From NCBI GenBank assembly GCA_002084875.1, contig NBMH01000001.1, forward strand, positions 1-37,711: 37,711 nt of DNA. Reading direction: 5' to 3'. The position numbers and the translations under genes were made by a program. Origin of the DNA: Anaerolineaceae bacterium 4572_78 (GTDB lineage: Bacteria; Chloroflexota; Anaerolineae; 4572-78). This document shows, in pieces, positions 243 through 37,349 of the stretch; the stretch's first letter is position 1; each line of letters begins with the position of its first letter. The notes below the pieces were generated by a model that was given only the letters and a program-made list of their open reading frames with translations, was not told where the DNA came from and searched no databases.

Positions 243-271
243 TTGTTAAAAAATTGAGATTGATATATAAT
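243..271 (+). promoter_or_regulatory. Putative sigma70-type promoter upstream of the DprE1-like gene (-35 TTGTTA at 243-248; -10 TATATAAT at 264-271)
   Basis: TTGTTA, a 15-17-nt spacer and TATATAAT lie about 25 nt upstream of the ATG at 300. The hexamer match is visual only. Confidence 0.3.
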
Positions 272-299
272 GGCAATAATTTTGACATAATCAACATGG

Positions 300-1560
300 A
301 TGAACAAAAAAATGAAACGATACGAATCATGGGGAAAATACCCCACTGCACATCATAAAATTTACCCGCTTCAATGGCGAACCGATAAATTAGACATGGC
401 AACATTTGATAGAACGGTTTTGCCATTCGGACAGGGACGTAGTTATGGCGATAGCTGTTTGAATGATGGAGGAATCCTGCTCGATACTGAAGGATTAAAT
501 CGCCTAATTTCTTTCGACAGAGAAAAAGGTATCTTGCGATGCGAAGCAGGTTTAACGCTGGACAAAATTTTGGAATTGATTGTTCCACAAGGTTGGTTTT
601 TTCCTGTAACTCCTGGCACAAAATATGTTTCAGTTGGAGGGTGTATTGCTAATGATGTACATGGCAAAACACACCATCGGGAAGGTACGTTTGGGCATCA
701 TGTTTCATGCTTTGAGTTGATGCGTTCTAACGGTGAGCGATTGCTATGCTCCCCGACCGAAAATGAGGAGTTGTTTAGGGCAACAATTGGCGGACTAGGC
801 TTGACAGGATTAATCACTTGGGCAGAATTAACTCTAAAGCCCATCAAGAGTCCCTTCATTCGCATGGAAAGCATCAAGTTTGAAAACCTTGATAAATTTT
901 TTGAGGTTTCGGCAGAATCGGATGAAAAATTTGAGGCAACCATGGCTTGGGTAGATTGTCTTTCTCAAGGTGAGTCATTGGGACGAGGCATATTCATGGG
1001 CGGCAATTTTGCTGAACCTCCCTTTGACAAAACCCCCACTGGTCGCAGTAAAACATTATTTACTGTTCCCATAAATGCCCCAAATTTTGCCCTGAACACC
1101 TTAACCAGTCGAGCTTTTAATTATTTGTACTACAACAAACAACGAATAAAAATCCAAAGAAGTTTGCTCTATTATGAACCGTTTTTCTTTTGTTGTGCCG
1201 TATACAGATTATAATGCTATTCGCACCATTTTCCAAAAGATTGCCGAGTCAGGCTTGGGGTCATTTCTGGCAGTGCTAAAAACGTTCGGAGATATTCCAT
1301 CGTTGGGCATAATGTCTTTTCCACGTCAGGGAGTCAATTTAGCTCTTGATTTTCCTAATGACGGGACTAAAACATTTAACCTTTTGGAACAGCTCGACCA
1401 AATTGTTAAGGCAAATAATGGTTTGGTCTATCCTGCTAAAGATGCCCGCATGTCCGCTGATAGCTTTCAGTCATTTTATCCGCAATGGCATGAATTTGCC
1501 AAATATATTGACCCTAAGTTTTCATCTAGTTTTTGGCGGAGAGTAACAGTAAGCAAGTAG
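300..1560 (+). CDS. dprE1: FAD-binding oxidoreductase, DprE1-like (decaprenylphosphoryl-beta-D-ribose 2'-oxidase family); reading frame interrupted at a T5 run (1182-1186), so the ORF track splits it into 300..1214 and 1174..1560
   Basis: The N-terminus has the ESWGKYP motif typical of DprE1 (mycobacterial LTGWGRTAP). The protein aligns along its length to the FAD-linked oxidase family (VSVGGCIANDVHGK). The second ORF, FSFVVPYTDYNAIRTIFQKIAESGLGSFLAVLKTFGD..., matches the DprE1 C-terminus (FLQYQFVIP...SFLNVFKLFG). Deleting one T from the T5 run would fuse the two frames into ...YYEPFSFVVPY... Confidence 0.6.
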
Positions 1561-18210: not shown

Positions 18211-19110
18211 ATGTCAGTTGTGCTAACTCCAACTATTGAAAAACATACTAAAAAAATTAGTAGCAATAATGGTTATTGGTCAATGATGACTGATAATTGG
18301 TCAATTGTGACCGATAATTGGTTGCTGGTTTTAGATAGGTTACATGATTTGCCTGACCATACTCAACTTCCTGAAACGGACGGTGCTATCGTGGCAAACT
18401 TTCAAGAACATCCACAAAGTTCATTACTCTCGGACGCAATTACGCCCGTACTACAAGAAATACATCCCGATGGACAATATGCCATTGGACAAAATAGTTT
18501 GATTTATTGGGAATGGGTAGAGCCAGTATTGGATGGTGCTAAAGCTCCTGATTGGTTTTATGTTCCTAATGTAGCACCTTTGCTAGATGACGATTTTAGG
18601 AGGTCGTATGTGCTATGGAAAGAGCATGTTCCCCCCTTAATTGCAATTGAAATGGTGTCAGGCGATGGCAAAAACGAACGAAACCGAACACCAGGCACAG
18701 GTAAGTTATGGGTGTATGAGAATGGCATACGAATAAAATATTATGCCATAATAGATGCTTGGCGAAAAATATTGGAGGTGCGTAAATTGGTAAGAGGTAG
18801 CTATCAGTTACTAAAAGCAAATGAGCAAGGTCGCTATCTGATAGAAGAGCTGGGAGTGGAGATTGGCATGTGGACAGGCACATACCAAAACATGACCACA
18901 GACTGGTTGCGATTTTGGGATAGAGATGGCAACCTATTGTTGATAGGCGACGAGCGTGCCAAGCAGGAACGCATGCGTGCCGAACAAGCCGAAGCTAGCC
19001 TTCGCTTGAAAGACCAAGAGACTGCCCGCCGCATGTTAGCTAAAGGCATGAACGTAGCACTCATTTTTGAAATAACAGGGCTTTCAACAGATGAAATCGC
19101 TAAACTCTAA
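18211..19110 (+). CDS. Uma2-family (DUF820) putative restriction-endonuclease-like protein with a C-terminal coiled-coil/HTH-like extension
   Basis: It has the characteristic LPETDG...(acceptor-like) motif and the downstream EHVPPLIAIEMVSGDGKNERNRTPGTGKLWVYENGIRIKYYAIIDA core. This matches the Uma2 pattern ...PDLAVEVLSP...K...Y...GV.EYWIID. The C-terminal ~60 aa (ERAKQERMRAEQAEASLRLKDQE...) lie outside the core. Confidence 0.7.
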   Translation: MSVVLTPTIEKHTKKISSNNGYWSMMTDNWSIVTDNWLLVLDRLHDLPDHTQLPETDGAIVANFQEHPQSSLLSDAITPVLQEIHPDGQYAIGQNSLIYWEWVEPVLDGAKAPDWFYVPNVAPLLDDDFRRSYVLWKEHVPPLIAIEMVSGDGKNERNRTPGTGKLWVYENGIRIKYYAIIDAWRKILEVRKLVRGSYQLLKANEQGRYLIEELGVEIGMWTGTYQNMTTDWLRFWDRDGNLLLIGDERAKQERMRAEQAEASLRLKDQETARRMLAKGMNVALIFEITGLSTDEIAKL

Positions 19111-19261
19111 CATTAACTAAATTTTGGGTAACCGTTCGTCTCCCTTGTTCCAATACTTTGTGTCGACCTACACAATGACGCAGAGTGTCATGTATCACGT
19201 TGCTACGCCCTGTGCGGTAACGATATGGTTATGATGAGGGAAGTGAATAATTACATACAAA

Positions 19262-19312
19262 AACAATCTCCACCATTCCTCCCTTTGAAGGGAGGGGTTG
19301 GGAATGGGATTT
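19262..19312. repeat. Intergenic repeat: hairpin CCTCCCTT-tga-AGGGAGG followed by GGTTGGGAATGGG
   Basis: It is a member of the G-rich dispersed repeat family seen in other intergenic regions of this window. Confidence 0.5.
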
Positions 19313-19326
19313 TACACTGAAAACCA

Positions 19327-19971
19327 ATGGTAAAAGATAAGCTTCCTGAAATATGGAGAAAAAATTTTTTAAACTTTATTCGATATCGTCACCTTTCCCG
19401 AGCGTTGACAACCATCGGCATTAATAAAGGTGATTTAAATGAATGGGCAAAGATAATGACCGAAATAGCTATAGCTACCTGTAAGTCATTAAGCTGGTCA
19501 ATAGCGGCTGAAGGTCATGTCTGTGATATATTACCAATATCAAGTCATAAGTATCTCGATTTAGATATAATGGCATTTGACCATACCAGCCGGTCTGATT
19601 GGAAGTATCCGATAGCTATAATAGAACTGGAAAGCTCGCAACGAGATTATGATGTTGCCTATTCTTTTTGGAAACTGATGAGTGTACGTTCTTACTTTCG
19701 TGTGTTATACTGCTATCGCCCCCGCAAATCAAAAGGAGTAGAATTGATACACGAGCTAGAACAAGAAGTATGGCGTGCTCTGGATTTAGAAGACCGTCTA
19801 ATAACAAAAGGAATAATCCTGGTTGTGGTCGGCGGCTATGAACGTATTGCCACTATCCCGCACACCTTCTTTCAGTGGTGGGTGCTTAATAAAGATACAG
19901 GATGGTTTGAGCCGATGCCTGAGGAAGATGTGAACTTATTAGGTATGAAGTACCTACATCGTAAAACATAA
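19327..19971 (+). CDS. Hypothetical protein (214 aa), no confidently recognised domain
   Basis: It is a long ORF isolated by 190-220-nt intergenic spacers, with no matching repeats inside. The weak D...D / E-L-E pattern (YLDLDIMAFD ... IAIIELESS) could be a degenerate nuclease-like core. This is speculative. Confidence 0.45.
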   Translation: MVKDKLPEIWRKNFLNFIRYRHLSRALTTIGINKGDLNEWAKIMTEIAIATCKSLSWSIAAEGHVCDILPISSHKYLDLDIMAFDHTSRSDWKYPIAIIELESSQRDYDVAYSFWKLMSVRSYFRVLYCYRPRKSKGVELIHELEQEVWRALDLEDRLITKGIILVVVGGYERIATIPHTFFQWWVLNKDTGWFEPMPEEDVNLLGMKYLHRKT

Positions 19972-20162
19972 TGAGTTTTTCTACTCAAACAAATCAATGG
20001 TTGCACAAATTGAATCAGTTTTTAAAACCTATCCAATCTCAAATTTCTGTAACCATAGACAGTCAACCACCCAACCTAAAGGGATTGGGTTTTATGGACT
20101 TTTTTCATAACGATTAAGTTTTTGTTAATATTTATGTTATCCAAATCATTTAAGGAGAAAAA

Positions 20163-21011
20163 ATGAAGAAATATACAATGTTGTTTATTGTTTTACTTTT
20201 AGGTACAATGTTAGTGGTGGCATGTTCGCCTCCAGCATCTCCAGAAAAATCTGGGGATGAGACACCAAAAGAAGAAAGTACTGAAGGTTTACCTGATTTA
20301 AAAGGGCAGGAATTAACCATTGCCATAGAAAACGCCTATATGCCGTTTAACTATATCAATTTGGAAACAGGTAAGCCCGAAGGTTGGGACTACGATGCCT
20401 GTAATGAAATTTGTCGTCGCCTCAACTGCACCCCTGTTTATGTTGAAGCAGCTTGGGATGGCTTGATTGCGGCTGTCGAAGAAGGTCAATTTGACATAGC
20501 AGCTAATGGAGTCACTATCACAGAAGAACGAGCTCAGGTCGTTGATTTTTCTGATGGCTACATGAGCATTGAACAACGAATTATGGTTCGAGTTGATGAA
20601 AACCGTTTTGAATCAGCACAAGAATTAAAGAACAATTCAGACTTGACACTTGGTACACAAGTCGGCACGACTAATTTTAATACGGCTGTTGACTTGGTTG
20701 GTGAAGAAAGGGTCATTTCATTTAATGACTTTGGTTTAGCAGTGCAGGCTCTCATTTCAGGTGATGTAGATGCGGTTATCATGGATGAGACGGCTGGGCA
20801 GGGCTATGTGGGAGTCAATGCCGAAAAAATTAACTTGATTGGCGATTCATTAAGCAGTGACCAACTTGGTTTCATTTTTCCACAAGGAAGCAAATTGGTT
20901 GAGCCCTTTAATGAAGCCTTAGCTTCTATGCGTGAAGATGGCACTCTTGAAGAATTAGCCATGAAATATTTCTCCGACAATTTCACATTGACAGATGAGG
21001 ATATTAAGTAA
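20163..21011 (+). CDS. ABC transporter substrate-binding lipoprotein (amino-acid/family-3 SBP type)
   Basis: It has a signal peptide with a lipobox ([11 protein letters not shown]). The SBP_bac_3-like core includes ...[14 protein letters not shown]... and ...[16 protein letters not shown].... The RBS AAGGAGAAAAAATG is good. Confidence 0.8.
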
Positions 21012-21030
21012 TTGATGTCAACCACATTGG

Positions 21031-21070
21031 TTTGTAGTAGTGATTGAAGTCGTTACTACAAACCTTTAGA
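21031..21070 (+). terminator. Candidate intrinsic terminator after the SBP gene (stem GTTTGTAGTA / TACTACAAAC, then CTTT...GTTTTT)
   Basis: It is a 10-bp perfect stem with a 13-nt loop, 20 nt past the stop codon. The T-tract is interrupted, so this is weak. Confidence 0.35.
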
Positions 21071-21092
21071 ATGTTTTTGAGGATTGTAAACA

Positions 21093-21731
21093 ATGAATTG
21101 GTCATTAATTTATGAAATAATTGGTTATACCGCTTCTGTCTTGATTGCGGTTTCAATGATGATGAGTTCTATCATTAGATTACGAATCATCAATCTCATC
21201 GGGGCATTTTTCTTTACATTGTATGGCTTGTTGATTTCAGCCTACCCTGTTGCCGCCCTCAATTTTTTTATTGTGTTGATAAACATCTACTATCTACACA
21301 AAATGTTTACCAGCAAAGAATATTTTACCTTCCTCGAATCAGAAAAAGATTCACCATACATAAAATATTTTTTAGGGTTCCATAAACAGGAAATTACTTT
21401 CTTTTTTCCTGATTTTTCTTATGAGCCCACAAAAAATTTGCTGACATTTTTTACTTTGCGAGATATTATTCCTGCTGGCTTATTTATTGCTGAAATCATG
21501 GATGACCATACTTTATTTGTCACCCTTGATTTTGTCATGCCTGGCTACAGAGATTTCGCAATTGACAGGTTTATCTATGTTGAAAGGTCAGATTTTCTTA
21601 CCGATAAAGGATTTAATAATATTTACACGAAGATTGATAATGATGCTCATGTGAAACATCTACAGAAAATAGGCTTTAAGTTTGACGATACAAAGGGTGA
21701 TGGCACACTATATTTGAAACTTGGAAAGTGA
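21093..21731 (+). CDS. Membrane protein: N-terminal YgjV-like 3-TM module fused to a ~135-aa soluble domain of unknown function
   Basis: The N-terminal 75 aa (SLIYEIIGYTASVLIAVSMMMSS...GAFFFTLYGLLIS...FFIVLINIYYL) resemble the YgjV inner-membrane family. The remainder has no recognised motif. Confidence 0.5.
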   Translation: MNWSLIYEIIGYTASVLIAVSMMMSSIIRLRIINLIGAFFFTLYGLLISAYPVAALNFFIVLINIYYLHKMFTSKEYFTFLESEKDSPYIKYFLGFHKQEITFFFPDFSYEPTKNLLTFFTLRDIIPAGLFIAEIMDDHTLFVTLDFVMPGYRDFAIDRFIYVERSDFLTDKGFNNIYTKIDNDAHVKHLQKIGFKFDDTKGDGTLYLKLGK

Positions 21732-21733
21732 GC

Positions 21734-22723
21734 CTACATTTTTTTCATACTACATAATCGTGTTATCAGCATGTCTAATGCCATTGTCTCCTCCATTTGC
21801 CCTGTTTTAATCGCTTTGTCTGTTTCAAGTAAAATCGAAAAAACATCTACTAATTGCTTGGTGCTAAACTTTTTCCCTTCTCGTAGCCGTATCTGCACAG
21901 GGTAATCACTTCGCCAGCCTTTTGCTTGAGCGATTTGAGGTGGGGTCATGCCGCTTTCAGCCATGCTTTTTATTTCGAGCAGGCTACGAAATTGGCTGGT
22001 AATGCTACCTAATATTGCTAGGGTATGCTGTCCTTCATTCAGGTGTTTATGATATTGGTCTAATGCCTTTTCAATGTTTTGTCGTCCGATTGCGTTTGCC
22101 ATAGCAAATGCTTCGGAATCAACAGTATAAGGACATAAATATTCAACATCGGCTAAACGAATTGGACGTTTATTTTTAACATACAAAATAAGTTTTTCCA
22201 ATTCGTTATCTAACATCCGCAAATTTTCACCAACAACATTTGCTAGTGCCATCGCGGCTGGCATGTCAATTTTGCCCTCCTTTTGCTGAACACGTTTTTC
22301 TATCCATGGCACAAGTTCTCTCTTCGTCGGTTCAGGAAAAGCGTGGACACAATCAGATATTTTCAATCCTTTTTTGAGAATTGAGTGGTTTTTTCTCAGA
22401 GTAACATTCTCAATGAAAACAAGCGTGGTGCTATCAGGGAGGTTGTCCAATAATTTTGCCAAATCAGTGATGACTTCGGCACGATTTTTCTTCTTGGCTC
22501 CGCCACTGATTTGGCTCAAGTAGTTCTGAACAATTACCAGCCGATTTGAGATGAGAAAGGGCATAGCATGAACATGATGAGTAAGTTCAGCTATAGTAAG
22601 GTTTTTCCCTTCCAATTCAGTAGTATTAAGGGAAAGCATATCTGAATTACCTAGACGACTTTTTAAGTCGGCAAGCATTTCTTTGGCTGTAAATTCATTG
22701 GGCCCATGAAAAATATGATACAT
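21734..22723 (-). CDS. holA: DNA polymerase III delta subunit (HolA)
   Basis: It matches the delta-subunit N-terminal pattern (MYHIFHGPNEFTAKEMLADLKSRL...LSLNTTELEGKNLTIAELTHHVHAMPFLISNRLVIVQN). The start is set at ATG 22723 with AGGTAAAC upstream. The longer track ORF starting at 22828 adds 35 non-conserved residues. Confidence 0.65.
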   Translation of the reverse strand: MYHIFHGPNEFTAKEMLADLKSRLGNSDMLSLNTTELEGKNLTIAELTHHVHAMPFLISNRLVIVQNYLSQISGGAKKKNRAEVITDLAKLLDNLPDSTTLVFIENVTLRKNHSILKKGLKISDCVHAFPEPTKRELVPWIEKRVQQKEGKIDMPAAMALANVVGENLRMLDNELEKLILYVKNKRPIRLADVEYLCPYTVDSEAFAMANAIGRQNIEKALDQYHKHLNEGQHTLAILGSITSQFRSLLEIKSMAESGMTPPQIAQAKGWRSDYPVQIRLREGKKFSTKQLVDVFSILLETDKAIKTGQMEETMALDMLITRLCSMKKM

Positions 22724-22759
22724 GTTTACCTGTAGACTTTTTTTATACCTACAGTCTAA

Positions 22760-22790
22760 GACAAGAAAGGTTTTAAAAACCTTTCTTGTC
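22760..22790. repeat. Copy 3 of the palindromic element (GACAAGAAAGGTTTTAAAAACCTTTCTTGTC), a perfect 12-bp stem between holA and its upstream gene
   Basis: It is a perfect inverted repeat, the same unit as at 3309-3337 and 6156-6188. Confidence 0.75.
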
Positions 22791-22803
22791 TGTCCATTGT
22801 CTT

Positions 22804-24111
22804 TTATAAGCGTCGACTGATTTTCCATTTACCTTCATGAAAAACCACCTCTAGGTTGATAATTTCTGTTGTTGTAACTTCGGCATCACCCTTATTTTGC
22901 TTAATCACTGCCTGTAATTTAACTCGACTGGAAAGTGGGGTTGAGCCTGCATAAGAAACAGCTACATCTGTTTTCTCCACATCAGGAAAATATTCCAGTT
23001 TGGTAACAGATACATTAAATGGTAATGTATCACTTGGCAAGCCAAAGTAGGAAAATTTATTATTATTATATTCTGTTCCTGCTTGACTATCAGGAGCAAA
23101 AAAATCAAGCATGTTCTCATTAGCATCAACTAATGCTGTATTTTCCCCCAACGTTTTATAAAATCCCAAAACCAGTTTTTCAGGAAATTCTGTTTGGAAG
23201 ATGTTCACAAGAGGGTCTTCTAAAGCAAAATCAATATAAGATTTCACGGGAGCAGCCAATGAAGCCGCTCCTATATCTGCCATAAAGGTGGCATTAACAC
23301 CTTCACCATGAAGGTCATACACATTTTTCACTGCCAGCTGAGCCCGTTCATATGCTCCCCTGTCAGAAACTGTAACTTGTTTGGTATCAGGATTGTATGA
23401 TACCCCACCACTTCCTTCAAAAGAACCAATCACTTGATAACGTGGGGGGTCATCTCGTGGCGGTTGCCAAGGGCTTGTATTTTGTTGGAAGCTAAAAATG
23501 GTCAATTGATTTTTCACTCCATTCAATTGACCGTAAATAAGGAGCTCGGGAATACCATCTTGTACGATTACACCTGTTTCGGCATCGCAGTCACTTGTTT
23601 CGCATTTAGCAAGATTAGGAATAATATCTTGTTTGTCATCAACGATGACATGTCCTTCACCTAAGAAATCTCTGTCAGGAGCGTCAAGTGAATAAGGGAA
23701 AATAATAGGTAGCGGTTTGCCACGGTCATTATCATAAATCACCGCCAAACGTGGGGAACTTCCTGGACAAGGGTCGTTTAGGCTTTTCCTTTCAGAAATG
23801 TCACTGAATTCATCAGATACTCTAACCGAATCAACCTGATAAACGACCAGCCATTCTTGGTCTTCCGTATTATTATCTGTGTTAAGTTGTTGTGCTGAGC
23901 AGATTTTCCTCCCATCTTCAGGAATAAAATCAGTCAATTTACCTGACCAGACAAGCCAACCTGTTTCCACAAGTGGACTCATGTCAATTCTACACAGAAG
24001 TACTGAAAACACCAACATAAAACCAATAACAACGAGCAATCCAATCGCATTAACAATTGCTCCTGTAATATATTTTATAAACTGAGAACCAATTTCTGTT
24101 AATCCAGACAC
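22804..24111 (-). CDS. Hypothetical membrane-anchored protein (N-terminal TM, large extracytoplasmic domain), upstream of and co-oriented with holA
   Basis: It has a GTG start at 24111 with AAAGGTGAAAG upstream. The TM helix is AIVNAIGLLVVIGFMLVFSVLL. No domain is recognised in the remaining 400 aa. Confidence 0.5.
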   Translation of the reverse strand: MSGLTEIGSQFIKYITGAIVNAIGLLVVIGFMLVFSVLLCRIDMSPLVETGWLVWSGKLTDFIPEDGRKICSAQQLNTDNNTEDQEWLVVYQVDSVRVSDEFSDISERKSLNDPCPGSSPRLAVIYDNDRGKPLPIIFPYSLDAPDRDFLGEGHVIVDDKQDIIPNLAKCETSDCDAETGVIVQDGIPELLIYGQLNGVKNQLTIFSFQQNTSPWQPPRDDPPRYQVIGSFEGSGGVSYNPDTKQVTVSDRGAYERAQLAVKNVYDLHGEGVNATFMADIGAASLAAPVKSYIDFALEDPLVNIFQTEFPEKLVLGFYKTLGENTALVDANENMLDFFAPDSQAGTEYNNNKFSYFGLPSDTLPFNVSVTKLEYFPDVEKTDVAVSYAGSTPLSSRVKLQAVIKQNKGDAEVTTTEIINLEVVFHEGKWKISRRL

Positions 24112-24282
24112 TATCTTTCACCTTTGTATGTTAAAAATATTATGTAAATTAAATTCATGTTATCACTGATTTTTTATTATGTCAACTTAAGAAAAAAAAA
24201 TGGATATTATATTTTGACGATTTTTCAATCTGTTGAAACCGATTTCTGTTTCCAGAATGAGGTTTGAATCTCACGCCCGTTA

Positions 24283-24362
24283 GTACTACAACCCCCCATC
24301 CCATTCCCATGCGAGGAGAATCCCCCTCCACATAGGGAAGGGGTTAGGGATAGTGAAACGCG
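24283..24362. repeat. Intergenic G/C-rich repeat (CCCCCCATCCCATTCCCATGCGAGGAGAATCCCCCTCCACATAGGGAAGGGGTTAGGGATAGTGAAACG)
   Basis: It shares the ...GGGGTTAGGGATAGTGAAACG tail with 28838-28860 (GGGGAGTGGTGATGGTGAAACG) and with other ...GGTGAAC-terminated copies. Confidence 0.55.
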
Positions 24363-24376
24363 ATTACCCAAGAAAA

Positions 24377-25012
24377 TTATTTCTGCTTCTTATGATTTTT
24401 AAACTGCTTAAAAGCTACATACATCAGCATGAAAAAGATTGCACTTGCCAAGAAGCTAACATAAGGTGAATCTTGAACTGCTAAGGTAATTCCTGTTTCA
24501 GGCATTTCGACGTATATATCAATATCATCAGTACTTGTTTTTGATGATGGTGGTGATGTTGGTGTACTGGTGCTAGTCAGTTCAACTTCAGGAAGTGCAC
24601 TCTCACCCAAGTCACCTGTACTTGTTATAACAGCAGTACTGGTTATAACAACAGTACGAATCATTGACGGTGTTTGGGTCTCTGTTGGGAATGGTGTATT
24701 AATGGAAACCTGTTCTTTGGTAGGTGTCCAAGTTGGAACTGAAGCTACCTCATTAGTAGGTGTCCAAGTCGGAGTTGCTACATCCTCGACCGCTTCCGTT
24801 GTGTCAACAACTTCAGTGGCATCACCATTGGTATCAGGTTCGGTACCAGTATCAACAGTATTGGTTATTGGTTCTCCTGTTTCAGCAGTTGTATCAGGAG
24901 GCGGTTCAGCACTGCCTGCACCAATCTGTGGCAATATAAAATAAGCACCAACACCAATAATACCAATCACAACAAATACAGCTAAAATAATGATAATTAA
25001 TCTCAGTTTCAT
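24377..25012 (-). CDS. Pro/Thr-rich surface protein with N-terminal signal-anchor and a C-terminal sortase-like sorting signal (MPETG + hydrophobic segment + KNHKKQK)
   Basis: The N-terminal TM is IIIILAVFVVIGIIGVGAYFIL. A long T/P/E-rich linker contains a tandem VPTWTPT(N/K)E repeat. The C-terminus is ...YVEMPETGITLAVQDSPYVSFLASAIFFMLMYVAFKQFKNHKKQK. The RBS AGGAGT is present. Confidence 0.6.
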   Translation of the reverse strand: MKLRLIIIILAVFVVIGIIGVGAYFILPQIGAGSAEPPPDTTAETGEPITNTVDTGTEPDTNGDATEVVDTTEAVEDVATPTWTPTNEVASVPTWTPTKEQVSINTPFPTETQTPSMIRTVVITSTAVITSTGDLGESALPEVELTSTSTPTSPPSSKTSTDDIDIYVEMPETGITLAVQDSPYVSFLASAIFFMLMYVAFKQFKNHKKQK

Positions 25013-25064
25013 AAATTGATACTCCTATAGTTTTAGTGAACGGACTAGAAATCCGTTCTGCATG

Positions 25065-25565
25065 CTAATCTTCGATGCTATCTGATCGTTGCTGATTGTA
25101 ATCAACATAGCGAACGGCACCGACAATAAGAAACGCAATCAATGCAAAACTCATCCAAAATTGCCAATCAGTAGGAATATCCATTGAGGAAACTCCCGTT
25201 TGAGGTAAAGGTCGCTCCATGCCTGCACTATTGGCAGGCGGAAGCGTTGCTATTGGTTGAGCAACAGATTCAGATGTAAGTCGCGGTTTTATCGGCTTAA
25301 TTGTGGGAGTTGCATCACCACCTGTTACATCAGGAGTCATCTGCATGACCCTAATCACTGTTGGCGAAGATGTAAATGTTGGTAATGGGGTTGGTGTTTC
25401 AATTGATATGGGTGTTGGTGCAACCTCATCACCTGGTACAAGAGCAGATTCTCCACCACCAAACCCCAAGATGCCACTGTTAAATACAAAATAACCTCCC
25501 GCAACCAAAAGCACCAATCCAATAATTGTGCCAAAAATAATAATGAGTACACGTCTACTTTTCAT
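25065..25565 (-). CDS. Pro/Thr-rich surface protein with N-terminal signal-anchor and a C-terminal LPQTG-type sorting signal
   Basis: The N-terminal TM is VLIIIFGTIIGLVLLVAGGYFVF. The region after it is PT-rich (TPTPLPTFTSSPT). The C-terminus is ...RPLPQTGVSSMDIPTDWQFWMSFALIAFLIVGAVRYVDYNQQRSDSIED. Confidence 0.6.
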   Translation of the reverse strand: MKSRRVLIIIFGTIIGLVLLVAGGYFVFNSGILGFGGGESALVPGDEVAPTPISIETPTPLPTFTSSPTVIRVMQMTPDVTGGDATPTIKPIKPRLTSESVAQPIATLPPANSAGMERPLPQTGVSSMDIPTDWQFWMSFALIAFLIVGAVRYVDYNQQRSDSIED

Positions 25566-25708
25566 GCTTTTTCACATTTCCTCACTTCTGTAAACAAAAA
25601 TAGATTGTGTCAACCTAATTCTAAGTATACCACAAGATTTTTTGTTATGTCAACTAAAAACCATAAAAATTGTGTATTCTATCATTGTTTGGGTATTTTT
25701 TCAGAATG

Positions 25709-25717
25709 TGATATAAT
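25709..25717 (+). promoter_or_regulatory. Candidate extended -10 promoter element (TGATATAAT) about 37 nt upstream of the hybrid kinase start
   Basis: TGnTATAAT matches exactly at 25709-25717. Only a poor -35 (TTGTTT, 21-nt spacer) is present. The region is AT-rich and divergent. Confidence 0.3.
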
Positions 25718-25753
25718 AGTACATGATTTTATAAATTATTTGTGTGAGACAAG

Positions 25754-27652
25754 ATGACTAAATCTAAGCATATCCAATCATCACATTGGTATTATCGTTG
25801 CTGGGATAATTATACATTACGTGTAAAATTAATTATTGCCTTTTTAAGTGTGAGTATATTTTCGGCGGGTATAGTTGCATTTTTTTCAGGCACCATTCAA
25901 TTGTCAACGCAAGACTTTGACATGCCTTGGGGAAACATAGCTTTAATTACTCTGTGTGTTGTCGGGGTATCCATAATAGTTGCAATTGGTGTTAATCAAC
26001 TATTAACAAGACAACTTGCTCATATCACAAATACCATTAATAAAATCATAGAAGGTAATTTGGATATGAGTGCTTCCGTTGAGACACATGACGAAATTGG
26101 TCAACTCGCTCAGGCACTTAATGCTATGACCAGCCATTTCCAAAAATCAATTGGTTCATTCACAACACAAATCAAAGAACAAACCTTTGAATTGGAAAAA
26201 GCAAAAGAAAAAGCAGGGGTGGCAAACAAGGCAAAAATTGAATTTCTTTCCAATATGAGTCATGAATTACGAACCCCTCTTAATGGTATTTTGGGCTATG
26301 CTCAAATCCTTAGACGCTATAAGGGACTCAACCCTACCCAAAAAGAAGGCATGAAGATCATTTATCAAAGTAGTGAACATCTCCTCACTCTAATCAATGA
26401 TGTATTAGACCTTGCTAATATTGAATCACAAAAAATAAACATCTATCCTTCCGATTTTCACTTCCAACAATTTTTAGATAATATTGCAAGCGTCATCCGC
26501 ATGCAAGCAGAACAGAAAAGTATTACATTCGTTCAAGAAATAACAACACAATTACCACCTGGTATCCATGCTGACGAGAAACGGTTACGACAAATTTTAA
26601 TTAATCTTTTGGGAAATGCGGTTAAATTTACTAACAGTGGTAAAGTGATATTTCGAATAAGTGAATTGGATGAGATTAATGTTGTGAATGAATTAGGTGA
26701 TAAAGAAAATCAGTCCATTATCCGCTTTGAAATTAAGGATACAGGAGTGGGGATGTCCCATGAAGAAATAAAAACAGTTTTCCTCCCTTTTGAGCAAGTT
26801 GGTGATATTCAACATCGGGCTCCTGGCATGGGTTTAGGTTTGACAATTAGTGGGAGATTGATTAACATGATGGGGGGTGAACTCAAGGTCAAAAGTGAAT
26901 TGGGAAAAGGAAGTACCTTTTGGTTTGATATAAACCTACCAATTGCTTTCGTCGATAAATTAGGATTTGAAAAACAAGCTAAGCGAACTATTACAGGATA
27001 TAAAGGTAAAAGACAAAAAATATTGGTTGTTGATGACAGACCACAAAATTGTTTGGTGCTAACCAAGATGTTGCAACCACTTGGGTTTGAAGTGATTATT
27101 GCCTACAATGGTCAGGAAGAAGTTGAAAAAGCAGATGAATTTCGCCCCGACATTATCCTGACTGATTTGGTTATGCCCGTCATGACTGGTTTTGAGGCAG
27201 TGCAGATTATTCGTCAGACTGCCGAAATTCAAAACACAGTCATTATTGCTATATCTGCCAGTATTTTTGACATGAACCAAAAGGATAGTAAGCTAGCAGG
27301 GTGTGATGATTTTCTTCCTAAACCTGTTCGAAGGATTGATTTGCTTGATACTATTGCTGAACATCTCAACCTGGAATGGACATATCAATCAATTGAGGAG
27401 GAGCTTGTTTTAGCTGAAGAAGATGTTCAAGACAAAGACATGGACAGGTTCGTGCCGCCACCAATGAAAGATATACATACCTTGCATGAGCTTGCCATGA
27501 TGGGAGACATGGAAGGTATCAGCGAATGGGCAACAGATATTGAACAATTGGATGAACAATTCAAACCGTTTGCTCGCGAACTTAGAAAGTTGGCAAACGA
27601 ATATAAAGATGCCCAAATTTTGGATTTGGTCGAACAGTATGTTCAGGACTAA
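25754..27652 (+). CDS. Hybrid sensor histidine kinase/response regulator (2TM-HAMP-HisKA-HATPase-REC) with a ~100-aa C-terminal extension
   Basis: H-box [16 protein letters not shown]-box [10 protein letters not shown]1 IKDTGVGM. G2 [13 protein letters not shown] has [14 protein letters not shown] and AISAS. A C-terminal acidic helical domain (...[18 protein letters not shown]...) is unassigned. Confidence 0.85.
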
Positions 27653-27693
27653 CATTAATTTATTTTGTCAGATTTTCAGAAGGAGGAACAACT

Positions 27694-28703
27694 ATGTACC
27701 TGGCACCATTAAACTACGACCGTTTTTTCAAGAAAGTTTTTCCGATACACGTATCGCTCAACAATTTTTGGAGGACTTTTTGGAAGTTACCATTACAGAG
27801 CTCAAACCACTGTCTAAAGAACATTATGTAACAGATGATTCCTCGCGGGTTGAGTTCGATTTTCGTTGTAAAATTGAAGGACGGCATGTCATCGTTGATA
27901 TGCAACAATGGTACAAGTCTGATATTGTACAACGTTTTTATCTTTATCATGCTTTGAACACAGGTTTACAACTGGAGACCTTGCCCGAAAAACGATTGAT
28001 TTTTGATAAGGAAACGCAATTACTCAAACAAGTCAAAGATTATCGTTATGTTGAACCAGTATTGACCTTGATTTGGTTGGTTAGTGAAACTTTAGGCTTT
28101 GAGGATAATTATGTTAGTTTCACCATGGCACCTGAACTGGTGCTAAATTTTTTGAAAAATGAACACTTGTGGCACAATACTGAAATAAAGGATTTATTAA
28201 CCGAACGCAAACATATTTTATCTTTGGTAAATAATACTACCAAATACCTTGATTTTCTATCCCAAAATCGGTTAATATTTCTCATTCAAAGAAATATCGT
28301 CAAGCATCAAAAAGGCATGGTTTATGAACGCTGGTTCCATTTTGCCGAAAAGAGCCGTAACCTAGAAAATGTGGAGTCTGATTTTGATGAGTTTCGGAAT
28401 GATACCATCTTTGATGAGATGATGAGAAGGTTATCAAAAAAAGGCTTAGCAGATGAAGATTTAGTCTACATTGCCAGCGAGTCAGAGGTACGAGCCGAAA
28501 TGGCTCGTTGGGAACAAGGATATTTTGAGGATGGTTATAGGGACGGTTACAATTCAGGTCAAATCAAAGGTCATGCCGAAGGTCATGTCAAAGGAGAGCA
28601 TAATAAAGCTATTCAAATTGCGGATAGCTTGCGAAAAAGGTGCATGTCGCTTGATGAAATTGCGGATATAACAGGACTCAGCCCGACCGAAATTATGGCA
28701 TAA
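27694..28703 (+). CDS. Rpn-family PD-(D/E)xK nuclease (TIGR01784-type 'putative transposase'); N-terminal 16 codons are in a different frame from the body (frameshift at the T5 run 27737-27741)
   Basis: A strong RBS AGGAGG sits 7 nt before ATG 27694. That ATG encodes MYLAPLNYDRFFKKVF, the conserved family N-terminus (...DYAFKKLF). The main frame continues SDTRIAQQFLEDFL...VEFDFRCKIEGRHVIVDMQQW (family E/D...E-x-Q core). One additional T in the run would make the product contiguous. The track ORF 27540..28703 has a spurious N-extension overlapping the kinase gene. Confidence 0.6.
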
Positions 28704-28734
28704 ACCCCTACCATGCTATTTTGTGACAAGATAA

Positions 28735-28862
28735 ATTGGAGCGTCAAAGCTTGCTTTGACATGAAAAAGCAAGCTTTTTCGCTCCATAAATATCCCAAGC
28801 CATGTTTTTTGTTTTAGCATTAAACAGCCCTAATTGTAGGGGAGTGGTGATGGTGAAACGTT
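28735..28862. repeat. Composite intergenic repeat (hairpin AAAGCTTGCTTT-gacatgaa-AAAGCAAGCTTT, GCATTAAACAGCCC box, GGGGAGTGGTGATGGTGAAACG tail); collinear copy of 8735-8920
   Basis: It is near-identical over ~90 nt with 8738-8862 but lacks the 33-nt insertion found in that copy. Confidence 0.7.
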
Positions 28863-28880
28863 TTGATTTAAGAGGTTTCT

Positions 28881-31800
28881 ATGACAAAATTTAAAACATG
28901 GCAACAGCCGCTAACTATGCGAAAAAAATTAATTTTCGTTTTTGTTATCATGGTTCTGACACCATTGGTGATATTAGCATGGCTCAATAACCGAGCCACA
29001 CATGCCGCACTAACATCGGCTGCCAATCAAACCATGTATGCGGCCGCATCTGAAAGTGTGACTGCATTAGACACTTTTATACATACAAATATTGGTACTG
29101 TTTATGCTATAGCTCAACTGCCCCAAATCGTCGAATATGTGCGTTTGCCTGCTGGCGAACGTCTAGGAATGAAAAATATCCGTGACATATTTACCACTCT
29201 GAAAAATAATAACGCCGACACGTTGACCTATATAATTCTCGATGAGAATGGTAAAATTATCGTTGTTGGCTATGGGTCAGGTGAATTTGGTATTGGCTTT
29301 GATAAATCAGAGCATGATTATTTTAAGATACCTTTCGCAAACGGCAAACCATTCATCTCAAGTGTACAATTTTTGTCGGATGAACAACCTGTTTTATATT
29401 TCAGCACACCTATTGAAGATGTGGTTGGTAATATCATCGGTGTATTAGTTCAAGTGTATGATGCCACCGTTTTGCAAGACTTGATTAAACACAACAAGGG
29501 TTTATCTGGAGAAAATGCGTTTGTTGCTTTAGTGGATGAAAATCAATTTTACTTAGCTCATAGTTCCCGCCCCGAAAATATGTTTAAGTTTGTACATAAT
29601 GTCGACGATGATACATTATTACAACTTTATCAAAATGAGCGTATCCCCGATTTGGAAGATAAAGCCTTGTTTCTTGATGACTCCACACTCAAACAAAAGT
29701 TAATAGAAAGCACAAATAAGTCCCATTTTTCAATCGCCGATATTACCCCTGATGGCAAAGTTCATCAAGCTACAGTGGCAAATTTAAGAATGTTGCCATG
29801 GTCTGTTGTCTTTTTTCAACCTCAAGATGTCTTTCTAGAACCTGTCTATGAACAAACACAAACCGCAATTATTGTAGCTGTGGTGATTATTGCCATAACA
29901 ATTGGCATTGCAATTATAATAACTGGATTTTTGGTGGGTCCCATTGTTCGTTTAACCAGCATTGCCCAACAGGTCGGCAAAGGTAATTTAAGTGTTCAGG
30001 CACATGTCGAGTCGGGTGATGAAATTGGTATCCTAGCAGCAACATTTAATAAAATGATAAATCGCTTGGAAGCACGCATCAGTGACCTGACACATACTCA
30101 AGAAGAACTTAGGCAATCTAAACAAGAATTGGAAGTGAAAAATAAACGGCTTAAGGAGATGGATAAACTTAAAGATGAATTTTTGGCAAACACATCTCAT
30201 GAACTACGCACTCCCATTAACGGTATCATCGGCTTGACCGAGTCCATGCTTGATGGAGCAACGGGAAGGCTTACTTCCGTGCAAAGCAGAAATCTATCCA
30301 TGGTGGTCATGAGTGGACGACGTTTGTCGACATTGATTAACGATATCCTTGATTTTTCTAAGTTGAAACACCATGCTCTTACTCTACAAATCAAACCCAT
30401 TTATTTATATCCTCTTGTTGATATAGTGCTTGCTCTATCTGAACCACTTGTAATAAGCAGACCCATTGAATTGATAAACGACATTGACCCCGATATTCCA
30501 GCAGTGTACGGCGATGAAAATCGAGTTCAGCAAATTTTGTATAATTTGATTGGCAATGCTATCAAATTTACCGAAGTCGGTAAAATTACTGTGTCAACTG
30601 TTGTTGGTGAAGAATACTTGACCGTTGTTATTGAAGATACAGGAATTGGCATTTCAGATGAAAATCTACCACTTATCTTCCAAGCATTTGAACAAGCGGA
30701 TGGCTCCATTGCTAGAAAATACGGTGGGGCAGGTTTGGGCTTGGCACTGACCAAACAATTAGTGGCATTGCATGGCGGGGAAATTCATGTCGACTCACAG
30801 GTCGGAAAAGGGTCAAAGTTTTATTTCACCTTACCAATTTCAAAGGGATTATCAGTAGACTCAAACACCTTTTTTGACCATCAATACGAAAAAGAAACGG
30901 TAGCCTCGATTTTAATTAATGACGATGAGGTCATGATTGAACATAAAACGCTTGCTCCTGTTGAAGGAGAATTTCATATTTTAGTTGTTGATGATGAGCC
31001 TGTTAATTTACAAGTTTTAATCAATCATTTGTCATTACAAAATTATCATGTCACCGCCGCGGCAAATGGCTTAAAGGCATTGGATTTAATTAAAAATGGA
31101 CAGTTGTTTGATATTGTCGTATTAGATGTGATGATGCCACGCATGTCAGGCTATAGTGTTTGCAAGGAAATCCGCCGTCACTATTCAGCTATAGAACTTC
31201 CGATAATTCTGCTCACTGCTAAAAATCAAGTAGGCGATTTGGTTACAGGTTTTAATTTGGGTGCTAATGATTATCTGGTCAAACCATTTTCTAAACTCGA
31301 ATTATTAGCTCGCATAAAAAGCCATCTACAACTAAATGACATGCGAAGACTCAATGCGAGTAAAGATAGATTTTTTTCAATCGTAGCCCATGACTTAAAG
31401 GGACCATTTCAGCCATTACTCGGCTTAACGGAATTGTTTCCACTGATTATTAAAAATAATGCATCTGAAGATGAATTAATAGAAACGGCAAATACTGTCC
31501 ATGCCTCCGCTCAGAATGTATATAATCTGCTTGAAAATTTGCTTAAATGGTCACGCTTGCAACGTGGACACATGTCTTATGAACCAGCAAAACTCAATCT
31601 GCATGAAATTGTGCAACAGGCAGTTACTTTACTGACAGGTAATGCTATGGACAAAAATATTACTTTACAAAATGCCGTTCCAAAGGGCATGTTTGTTTAT
31701 GCCGATGAAAACATGCTTTATACCGTCATTCGTAATCTGACCACCAATGCCCTTAAATTTACCCCAAAGAAAGGCTGGATTACTATAAAAGCTATCATGC

Positions 31801-32279: not shown

Positions 32280-33314
32280 TTAATAATTTTTTCGCCACTC
32301 AACATAAACAACCCCGTACATAGTATCCGTAGGTACTTCCTTTTCTTCTGATAATACTTCGGCACCATTACATCCTGACGGGCCGCTTGACGAGGCATTA
32401 ACAATAGCTACTTTCCAATTACCTGGTTTTGCCCTACCATCTAACAGAATATCATAGTTTCCAGCTGGGTATACTCCCGCTTCACCTGATGGTACGGAAA
32501 CTGTACAAAATCCCCCATCAACTCGAACCCTAACGCGTACGCCATTGACAGGGTTACCGTTGACATCTTCAATATACCCTCTAATTTGGGTGATGGCTTC
32601 ATTAACTTGCGGAAATATGTTGTTGGTTGTGTACTGATATTGGAATGAAGGTGTTGATGTTGGTAGGGTGACAGGCGTAGAGGCAGGTAACGGGACAGAT
32701 GTATAAGTGGGAGGAGGATATGTGGATGTGGGAACTATAGCTTGTGGTGGTAATGTGGGAATCGATTCAGGGGAAACAATTGGAACATCATCGGCATTGC
32801 TGGCGGTGGTTACACTAGCAGCAATCCAAACCAAACCATTAATGTACTTAACTTGCCACCATGAACTACGAGCATTACGCCCCACAATTTCGAGACTCGC
32901 ACCTAAGTCTAACACTCCCACCAACTCATAATTAATACCAGGTCCAGTCCGAAGATTAACGGCAGTATTACTTGCCATGACCATTGCTTTTACAGAAGTA
33001 GGGGTAGGCAATACTTCATTTTCATTGTTGTCATTTTCGCCATCTTCATGTGACTCGGCAACCGTTGGGGTAACGGTATCGGTTGGAGAAGATAGAAGAA
33101 TTGGTAATGGAGTGGAGGTAAATGTAGCAATAACTATATGCTGTGTTGGGGAAGGGGTAAAGGTTGGTAATGCAGAAGTTGGAGTGCTTATTACTACAGA
33201 CTTAACTGTAGGAGTAGGTGACACATCGCCTGCTATTCGTATGAACAGTTGCGAAAAAATAATATAGTTTAGTGAAATCAATATGATTACAAGGCTTAGT
33301 TCTCTTTTTGACAT
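32280..33314 (-). CDS. Membrane-anchored Pro/Thr-rich protein with a bacterial SH3 (SH3b)-like domain
   Basis: N-terminal TM LSLVIILISLNYIIFSQLF. PT-rich linkers. The SH3b-like segment is VNLRTGPGINYELVGVLDLGASLEIVGRNARSSWWQVKYINGLVWIAASV. RBS GGAGGT. Confidence 0.6.
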   Translation of the reverse strand: MSKRELSLVIILISLNYIIFSQLFIRIAGDVSPTPTVKSVVISTPTSALPTFTPSPTQHIVIATFTSTPLPILLSSPTDTVTPTVAESHEDGENDNNENEVLPTPTSVKAMVMASNTAVNLRTGPGINYELVGVLDLGASLEIVGRNARSSWWQVKYINGLVWIAASVTTASNADDVPIVSPESIPTLPPQAIVPTSTYPPPTYTSVPLPASTPVTLPTSTPSFQYQYTTNNIFPQVNEAITQIRGYIEDVNGNPVNGVRVRVRVDGGFCTVSVPSGEAGVYPAGNYDILLDGRAKPGNWKVAIVNASSSGPSGCNGAEVLSEEKEVPTDTMYGVVYVEWRKNY

Positions 33315-35700: not shown

Positions 35701-36282
35701 ATGAAAAAAACAAACTTTTTCGTTGTCGGTGTCGGAGGACAAGGCACATTATTAGCTAGTAATATCATTGCTGAAACGGGTTTATATATTGGACTCGATG
35801 CTAAAAAATCGGAAGTGCATGGTATGGCTCAACGAGGTGGTATAGTCACTAGTCATATCCGTTGGGATGAACATGTAGCTTCGCCTTTGTGTGAGCCAGG
35901 CACGGTAGATTATTTCATCGCCCAAGAAATGCTAGAAGGCATGCGTTGGATACACTTTCTAAAGCCTGGTGGTACAGTGATTATTAGTCATCAGCATTTA
36001 CCACCCACATCAACGGTACTTGGCTCGGTTGTATATCCATCTGATGAAGAAATCATGACCAAGCTAAAAGAATGGACAGATAATATTCTGATGATAGATG
36101 CGGCTGGCATTGCCAATAAACTCGGTAATCTGCGGGTGTCAAACAGTATATTAATCGGAGCATTATCTTCGGTCATGGACGTATCCCCTGAAGACTGGTT
36201 AGCAGTTCTGACAAGTAGAGTGCCTGCTCGTCATAAGGAAATTAATCGTCAAGCGTTCTTAGCTGGACGTGCAGGAAAGTAG
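35701..36282 (+). CDS. iorB: Indolepyruvate:ferredoxin oxidoreductase beta subunit (IorB)
   Basis: FVVGVGGQGTLLASNIIAE...HGMAQRGG is the pyruvate/ketoisovalerate oxidoreductase gamma-type fold found in IorB. Start set at ATG 35701 with GGAG 6 nt upstream (the track ORF starts at 35653 without an RBS). It follows iorA directly. Confidence 0.8.
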   Translation: MKKTNFFVVGVGGQGTLLASNIIAETGLYIGLDAKKSEVHGMAQRGGIVTSHIRWDEHVASPLCEPGTVDYFIAQEMLEGMRWIHFLKPGGTVIISHQHLPPTSTVLGSVVYPSDEEIMTKLKEWTDNILMIDAAGIANKLGNLRVSNSILIGALSSVMDVSPEDWLAVLTSRVPARHKEINRQAFLAGRAGK

Positions 36283-37349
36283 AAGTCGATGTTACCTAAA
36301 TTTTGATACATTGGGCTGACAAACAAGTAGGTCAGGTTAATTTTAGTCGGGTAGGTAGATAAATGTCCATTTTCATCAGTGATATGAATCACATAAAATA
36401 TATCTTCCGTTAATAAACCACTTGTTGTCCAACTTAAGAAAACGGTTGAATCATCCCCTTCTATCAAAGTATTGTTAGTTGGAGATAATAACATTGGTTG
36501 CACGAGAAGGGGACGAGGGGTAAATGTTGGTAGTGGAGTAGCCGTAGAAGTAGCAGTTGGTGTTGGAGTAGAGACAGGAACGATTAAAATCTGTCCAACT
36601 ATTAGTGAATCGGGATTAATTTCAGGATTAAGTAATTTGATTTCATCCAAAGCGGCTCCGTATTCTGATGAAATACCCAATAATGTATCACCAGCCTGGA
36701 TGGTATAAGTAAATGTTTGACGGCGAGCGACAGGTTCAGGAGCGTTTTCATCATCTGATTTGTAATTGGAAGGAATTACAATTTTATCACCGATGTGAAG
36801 TATAGTTTGTGGGCTAAGATGTATGTTTACCGCTAAAATTTCATCAACGGACACGCCATACAGATTTGCCATGATACCTAGATTATCACCGCTTCGAACT
36901 TCATGCACAATTTGAGTAGGTGAGGGAGTAGGCGAAGGGATAGGTGTGTTGGTAGGCGTTTGTGTAAAAGTAGGGCGGGGGGTAGGTGTGATGGATGGGG
37001 TATAGGTGGATGTTGGTATGGAAAAAGTTGCAGTTGGTGGTAATGCAATAATGATTCTTGTTTTTGATGGAACTGTGTGAGATGGTTGTATCTGTAGGAG
37101 AAAATAAACGATACTGATAATAATAATCAGACTCACTCCTAAGATAACATTATCTACACCAATATTTTTACGTTGGGGCAATGCGTCAATTGGTTGTTGA
37201 CACATTATGCATGTGGTCGCATCTTGGGCAACTACCATGCCACAATTAAAACAGGTACGTTGTGTTTTTTGACCAGGCATGCGGACACCACACATGTTAC
37301 AACGTAATGTATTTGGTTCAAGGTTTGCACCACAATTTGTACAAATCAT
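36249..37349 (-). CDS. Membrane protein: cytoplasmic double zinc-ribbon - TM - Pro/Thr-rich linker - two LysM domains - C-terminal domain
   Basis: Four CxxC pairs in the first 55 aa (CTNCG...CNMCG...CFNCG...CIMCQ). TM IILGVSLIIIISIVYFLL. LysM 1 is VRSGDNLGIMANLYGVSVDEILAVN...GDKIVIP. LysM 2 is YTIQAGDTLLGISSEYGAALDEIKLLNP...GQILIVP. The 3' end overlaps the iorB stop by 34 nt (convergent). Confidence 0.65.
   Translation of the reverse strand: MICTNCGANLEPNTLRCNMCGVRMPGQKTQRTCFNCGMVVAQDATTCIMCQQPIDALPQRKNIGVDNVILGVSLIIIISIVYFLLQIQPSHTVPSKTRIIIALPPTATFSIPTSTYTPSITPTPRPTFTQTPTNTPIPSPTPSPTQIVHEVRSGDNLGIMANLYGVSVDEILAVNIHLSPQTILHIGDKIVIPSNYKSDDENAPEPVARRQTFTYTIQAGDTLLGISSEYGAALDEIKLLNPEINPDSLIVGQILIVPVSTPTPTATSTATPLPTFTPRPLLVQPMLLSPTNNTLIEGDDSTVFLSWTTSGLLTEDIFYVIHITDENGHLSTYPTKINLTYLFVSPMYQNLGNIDFYFPARPAKNA

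Follow-up and report, generated by a model that had tools for sequence, protein, structure and literature searches.

A 37,711-nt stretch of contig NBMH01000001.1 from Anaerolineaceae bacterium 4572_78 (assembly GCA_002084875.1), the whole of which we call the window, carries two adjacent minus-strand genes, hereafter A and B, whose Pro/Thr-rich products end in an [L/M]PxTG pentapeptide, a hydrophobic helix, and a short charged tail. We tentatively read these proteins as divergent sortase substrates in which the pentapeptide, placed 10-12 residues before the helix, would act as a cell-wall sorting signal, and we rate this reading slightly short of an even chance. It is favored by the presence of a non-random motif in both paralogs, by the canonical order of motif, helix, and tail, and by the Pro/Thr-rich region upstream. 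A sortase-type signal best explains why the motif has been retained, provided that the genome encodes a sortase, and the peptidoglycan-binding modules LysM and SH3_3 encoded nearby lend the reading some support. At most, A and B are divergent LPXTG-type surface proteins of an under-sampled lineage, and they may be ordinary membrane proteins. Their features are as follows:

24377..25012, minus strand: gene A (OQY49194.1), 211 aa, with an N-terminal helix, an acidic T/P/E-rich unstructured segment containing short tandem repeats, MPETG, a C-terminal helix, and a basic tail
24932..25000, minus strand: 23-aa N-terminal hydrophobic core of A (residues 5-27), part of an AlphaFold helix at residues 3-31
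24491..24505, minus strand: MPETG codons of A (residues 170-174), the motif starting 42 residues from the C-terminus
24410..24460, minus strand: C-terminal hydrophobic segment of A (residues 185-201), part of an AlphaFold helix at residues 183-210 and followed by KQFKNHKKQK
25065..25565, minus strand: gene B (OQY49195.1), 166 aa, with an N-terminal helix, a P/T-rich unstructured segment, LPQTG, a C-terminal helix, and an acidic tail
25482..25550, minus strand: 23-aa N-terminal hydrophobic core of B (residues 6-28), anchor-like
25194..25208, minus strand: LPQTG codons of B (residues 120-124), the motif starting 47 residues from the C-terminus
25113..25157, minus strand: C-terminal hydrophobic segment of B (residues 137-151), with the tail after it

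A first-pass annotation of this DNA had described two neighboring Pro/Thr-rich proteins with MPETG and LPQTG endings and a tripartite C-terminus (motif, hydrophobic segment, short charged tail), and both the gene arrangement and this C-terminal architecture were confirmed for A and B. Protein A runs from MKLR and the hydrophobic core through a 157-aa T/P/E/S-rich ectodomain (T 22%, P 12%, E 10%, S 9%) to MPETG, the 10-aa spacer ITLAVQDSPY, the 17-aa hydrophobic stretch VSFLASAIFFMLMYVAF, and the tail KQFKNHKKQK, which has a net charge of +5 and carries a K205E substitution in one population variant. Protein B is laid out in the same way, with MKSRR and its core leading into a 105-aa P/T/S/G-rich segment, LPQTG, the 12-aa spacer VSSMDIPTDWQF, the 15-aa hydrophobic stretch WMSFALIAFLIVGAV, and the 15-aa tail RYVDYNQQRSDSIED. 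Short in-frame tandem duplications are typical of low-complexity stalks, and A contains two of them, one with a 36-nt period (TPTWTPTNEVAS / VPTWTPTKEQVS) and one with an 18-nt period (VVITST / AVITST). Single-sequence AlphaFold modeling of A returned the two terminal helices and nothing else folded; the ca. 150 residues between them, motif included, show no secondary structure at a predicted local distance difference test (pLDDT) score of ca. 40. No domain of either protein was matched in Pfam and NCBIfam searches. A and B have no globular or passenger domain and neither a catalytic nor a binding domain.

The pentapeptide does not follow from the composition of these proteins. In 200,000 shuffles per ectodomain, scored over the 30 residues that precede the C-terminal helix, a strict [LM]PxTG arose at a frequency of 0.13% (A) and 0.55% (B), and the broader [LMIV][PA]xT[GA] at 2.3% and 3.2%, respectively. 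A and B are weak paralogs (BLASTP E 0.001, 26% identity), and the few identities between them include motif residues P, T, and G as well as a D-x-P element downstream (QDSPY / MDIPT). Among the other open reading frames (ORFs) of the window, none has a tail of the [LM]PxTG type. Given the low shuffle frequency, the alignment of the motif between the paralogs, and its restriction to these two ORFs of the window, the motif is unlikely to be due to chance and is better seen as a retained feature than as a product of composition.

If A and B are sortase substrates, they would be paralogous, species-restricted envelope proteins that a deep-branching, uncultured member of the Anaerolineae produces from a two-gene operon. 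The N-terminal hydrophobic segment would insert them via the Sec pathway, and the Pro/Thr-rich stalk, extended and unstructured, would lie exposed beyond the membrane; the stalk of A is also very acidic. The C-terminal helix would act as a stop-transfer segment that holds the proteins transiently, and a sortase, whose gene we infer to lie in another part of the genome, would cleave the Thr-Gly bond and join the stalk to peptidoglycan precursors. A product that kept its N-terminal segment would form a tether between membrane and wall. It speaks for the sortase reading that the Chloroflexi are considered monoderm, as Sutcliffe reportedly set out in 2010/2011 (cited in PMC3415414). The first-pass annotation had also suggested that these proteins belong to a sheath or an S-layer-like envelope, and nothing in our analysis supports such a role.

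Like the LPXTG proteins of Gram-positive bacteria, which are substrates of sortases A, E, or F (e.g., protein A of Staphylococcus aureus), A and B have an xPxTG motif within their last 50 residues, with a spacer, a hydrophobic stretch, and a charged tail behind it. Wall-spanning Pro/Thr-rich regions precede the motif in Gram-positive LPXTG proteins, and a Pro/Thr-rich, probably wall-spanning region lies directly before it in A and B as well. However, much weighs against sortase dependence, beginning with how the two proteins fit known anchor families. In searches reported to E<=10, no match to TIGR01167 (cut-off 15.9 bits), PF00746 (cut-off 20 bits), or other sorting-domain models was obtained for the full-length proteins or for C-terminal fragments of 56 or 59 residues, while the C-terminus of S. 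aureus protein A, used as a control, scored 23.1 bits on TIGR01167 and 35.7 bits on PF00746. Chimeras then located the deviation. With the native upstream region and MPETG or LPQTG joined to the spacer, helix, and tail of protein A, TIGR01167 scores rose to 23.0 and 28.0 bits, whereas the reverse chimeras, in which a perfect LPETG preceded the native downstream segment of A or B, gave no TIGR01167 match. These chimera results mean that the pentapeptides are acceptable to the model and that the downstream segments deviate: the profile failure comes from the long spacer, the aromatic-rich helices, and the acidic tail of B. Changing the first motif residue of A alone (M170L) did not rescue a TIGR01167 match.

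The two proteins differ in how far they fall short. B is a near miss on TIGR01167, reaching 16.3 bits when its spacer is shortened by five residues, 17.5 bits with a basic tail alone, 19.1 bits with a canonical spacer, and 21.8 bits with both changes together, whereas a canonical spacer brings A to only 12.4 bits, below the cut-off. Usual sortase motif patterns, sought in the last 50 residues, are LP.T[GAND], NP.TG, LP.GA, LA.TG, NPQTN, and IP.TG (PMC12617251). The LPQTG of B fits the first of these and lies within that distance, but the MPETG of A is outside the set. Both spacers are longer (10-12 residues) than the ca. 5-8 residues of classic examples, both C-terminal helices are rich in aromatic residues rather than in Gly, Ala, and Leu, and A has M at motif position 1. 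The tail of B is acidic (net -2, with a single Arg beside the helix); the first-pass annotation had called it mixed-charge and B therefore a weaker case, and the tail of A clearly basic.

Further differences from typical LPXTG proteins concern the N-termini and the lack of a functional passenger domain. Both proteins start with a 23-aa hydrophobic core without a clear AXA site, where the first-pass annotation had placed a signal-anchor. In the same window, the signal peptide of a 1218-aa protein (...SASIVMA|K) and the lipobox sequence of a solute-binding protein (LVVAC) have shorter hydrophobic cores. The closest parallel is a nearby SH3_3 protein (32280..33314, minus strand), whose short, basic N-terminus leads, as in A and B, into a long hydrophobic anchor and then a TPT/PTF-type linker with V/I-T runs. 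Unlike them, it continues into a globular wall-binding domain after the linker and has neither a C-terminal helix nor a PxTG motif. Because the cores of A and B are longer than those of the signal peptide and the lipobox protein and resemble the SH3_3 anchor, and because A is modeled as a helix at residues 3-31, their N-termini are more suggestive of permanent anchors than of signal peptides that are cleaved off. Such N-terminal anchoring is atypical for sortase substrates.

Also weighing against the reading, no sortase came to light. In agreement with the first-pass annotation, no ORF of at least 100 aa in the window has a match to the Sortase Pfam domain, and the same holds for another 8.3 kb further upstream (ca. 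46 kb of contig in total). Neither a phmmer search with SrtA nor a TLxTC/His/Arg signature found a sortase in ca. 0.8 Mb (58 contigs) of related Anaerolineae metagenome-assembled genomes (MAGs), a sample in which a single sortase per genome could have been missed. SrtA as a probe had been validated against the PDB, and since no structure named class E or F appeared in that search, it is probably insensitive to these classes. The same ca. 0.8 Mb held no [LMIV][PA]xT[GA] motif followed by a helix and tail, save for one 71-aa junk ORF, and no protein with the architecture of A and B, and several large secreted proteins of these relatives end in a plain helix and basic tail without any common motif. 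In the literature that we searched, sortases or LPXTG proteins of Anaerolineae are not documented; the one related remark, on a sortase homolog in Chloroflexus (PMC1586193), speaks for the sortase reading.

Two large secreted proteins of related Anaerolineales MAGs stand out by their C-termini: a 749-aa ORF ends in ...ELPTGSG..., a helix, and RRRGLR, and a 960-aa ORF ends in ...VPEPEEW, a helix, and RRAPRR. These two ends, one LPTG-like and the other PEP-CTERM-like, are possible further sorting signals in the class.

The main alternative is that A and B are uncleaved two-helix loop proteins with both termini inside (N-in/C-in), whose long, Pro/Thr-rich disordered loop would lie outside the cytoplasm and occupy the wall zone as a hydrated brush or spacer. 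In that case, the PxTG would have come down to both paralogs from their common ancestor as a juxtamembrane feature, and no sortase would be involved. We consider this a serious possibility, if one that we would place clearly below even. It accounts for an AlphaFold model of A that consists of the two terminal helices alone, for the 23-aa N-terminal cores, for the acidic tail of B, and for aromatic-rich helices that resemble ordinary transmembrane segments and fail the LPXTG profiles even behind a perfect LPETG. It also agrees with the failure to find a sortase in ca. 46 kb of contig or ca. 0.8 Mb of relatives, where a plain C-terminal helix with a basic tail is a common end of secreted proteins. 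However, it leaves a motif that is improbable from composition and was kept in both copies despite their divergence to 26% identity, and it does not sit easily with the small changes that suffice for B to pass TIGR01167.

In a more specific version of the sortase reading, conceivable but in our view improbable, A and B would carry a divergent signal particular to Chloroflexota, with a long spacer, an aromatic helix, and a tail that need not be basic, and would keep their N-terminal anchor. A sortase would then turn these two-helix loop proteins into covalent tethers between the cytoplasmic membrane and peptidoglycan. If true, such a tether would be a monoderm counterpart of Braun-lipoprotein-type tethering that is made only of a disordered Pro/Thr stalk.

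It is similarly unlikely that the motif is a processing or recognition site for a system other than sortase, e.g., a novel juxtamembrane protease or a C-terminal sorting enzyme particular to this lineage, through which the stalk would be released or modified. This idea draws on the motif being common to both paralogs while the downstream segment is non-canonical for sortase signals, and on the D-x-P element found in both spacers. The known C-terminal domains processed by exosortases, archaeosortases, and rhombosortases do resemble A and B in that the very end of the protein consists of a short motif, a helix, and a charged tail, in many cases behind a Thr/Pro-rich linker. However, their motif abuts the helix and differs in sequence, whereas that of A and B lies 10-12 residues away, and the NCBIfam models for PEP-CTERM, PGF-CTERM, GlyGly-CTERM, and similar domains matched neither protein. 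We therefore rejected A and B as substrates of these particular systems. In addition, no candidate enzyme gene adjoins the pair; the neighboring 435-aa protein has an NTF2-like fold and not that of a protease or sortase.

That A and B are merely chance open frames in low-complexity DNA, as their lack of homologs outside the species and the long antisense ORFs in the same DNA might suggest, is very improbable, because their frame-specific codon scores equal those of real neighbors, they come with a ribosome-binding site and a strong promoter, and they are paralogous in sequence and identical in topology. In the annotated frame, codon-usage log-odds are +0.39 bits per codon for A and +0.26 for B, similar to the 0.31-0.42 of known neighbor genes, while the five other frames of the same DNA are negative or near zero (<=0.04 bits per codon). 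An AGGAG ribosome-binding site lies upstream of A, and a sigma-70-like promoter with an 11/12 consensus match and an extended -10 lies upstream of B. On the strength of codon usage, ribosome-binding site, and promoter, A and B are real genes, and the gene callers of several public assemblies predict both of them. With the promoter before B, AGGAG before A, and a hairpin-rich region after A, the two look like a bicistronic operon, flanked by the following features:

25624..25668, minus strand: promoter-like site of the B-A operon (TTGACA, 18 nt, TATACT with TG), within a 33-nt direct repeat common to the promoter region of the next gene
24200..24376, minus strand: structured 3' region after A with G/C-rich hairpins (minimum free energy -56.9 kcal/mol, z -2.7)
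24157..24200, minus strand: second copy of the promoter-like repeat, upstream of the 435-aa gene
22804..24111, minus strand: neighbor gene encoding a 435-aa protein of an Anaerolineae-wide family, with an N-terminal helix, a beta domain, and an NTF2-like C-terminal domain

The B-A transcript probably ends in the structured region, in which we detected no canonical T-tract terminator. Rfam scans were negative for this region and for the rest of the locus, and so were tRNA scans of the locus. The two copies of the 33-nt direct repeat (25636-25668 and 24168-24200, minus strand) are 82% identical and include the TTGACA -35 box, and the repeat core AGTTGACATAAYAAAAAATC has two matches where 0.03 are expected. 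We read the repeat as a regulatory element that the two promoter regions have in common or as the product of a promoter duplicated locally. Together with position, it is all that ties the 435-aa neighbor to A and B. In relatives, homologs of this neighbor (32-42% identical) follow lon, and nothing like A or B adjoins them.

Neither gene has relatives that could tell us more about the motif. A word-indexed search of 5.8 billion clustered proteins found only A itself, and an exhaustive phmmer search of 1.84 billion representatives found B itself and one spurious repeat protein. Judged by these searches, A and B are species-restricted ORFans without orthologs to show conservation of the motif, which is a further point against sortase dependence. 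Contig JAOZQT010000013.1 (GCA_029932075.1) and several metagenome contigs likewise encode both proteins. Identity among cluster members and population contigs is 98-100%, and the contigs are essentially clonal (1 SNP, i.e., single-nucleotide polymorphism, in 1.6 kb), so that no selection signal can be read from population variants.

A conserved neighbor protein has its best non-self homolog at 42% identity, and the 55 related loci that we drew from species-representative genomes, all of them from Anaerolineae, Caldilineae, or Ardenticatenia MAGs, do not exceed 40% identity. The source organism, an uncultured member of the class Anaerolineae (Chloroflexota), therefore belongs to an isolated lineage, and in GTDB 4572_78 has an order of its own. 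Proteins with the architecture of A and B were absent from all 55 loci, where the only two hits of an architecture scan were an unrelated orthologous pair.

The window is nearly identical to JAOZQT010000013.1 (55.9 kb); comparison revealed a single SNP over window positions 14377-32199 and indels near ca. 1170 and ca. 32200. The first, within ca. 247..1560, splits a FAD_binding_4 gene of 437 aa in JAOZQT010000013.1 into ORFs of 304 and 128 aa in the window, and the second shortens a dCache hybrid kinase from 1168 aa to 1109 aa; in both cases, a frameshift introduced by the assembly is probable. The DOMB18 assembly shows a comparable split in holA.

Elsewhere, the window encodes further proteins of the envelope and beyond. 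Apart from the SH3_3 protein, whose N-terminal anchor and Pro/Thr linker lead to a non-covalent peptidoglycan-binding module, these include an envelope protein with a double zinc ribbon and two LysM domains, which are also non-covalent peptidoglycan-binding modules (36249..37349, minus strand), and the above-mentioned 1218-aa protein, which has a clear signal peptide and no Pfam match (8927..12583, minus strand). An 827-aa protein (15540..18023, plus strand) is predicted to be a bacterial homolog of the major vault protein in an Anaerolineae genome; it contains the shoulder domain of that protein (PF11978, E 1.8e-26) and a weakly matching Vault_3 repeat.

The wider impact of these findings is limited either way, since A and B are small, species-restricted proteins without a catalytic or binding domain. 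If they are not sortase substrates, they would illustrate that an [L/M]PxTG beside a C-terminal helix in Pro/Thr-rich proteins is insufficient to call sortase dependence. If they are, they would add an uncultured and little-studied order of Anaerolineae to the recognized sequence space of sortase signals and mean that current anchor profiles miss such signals, which would bear on how these filamentous monoderms construct their envelope.
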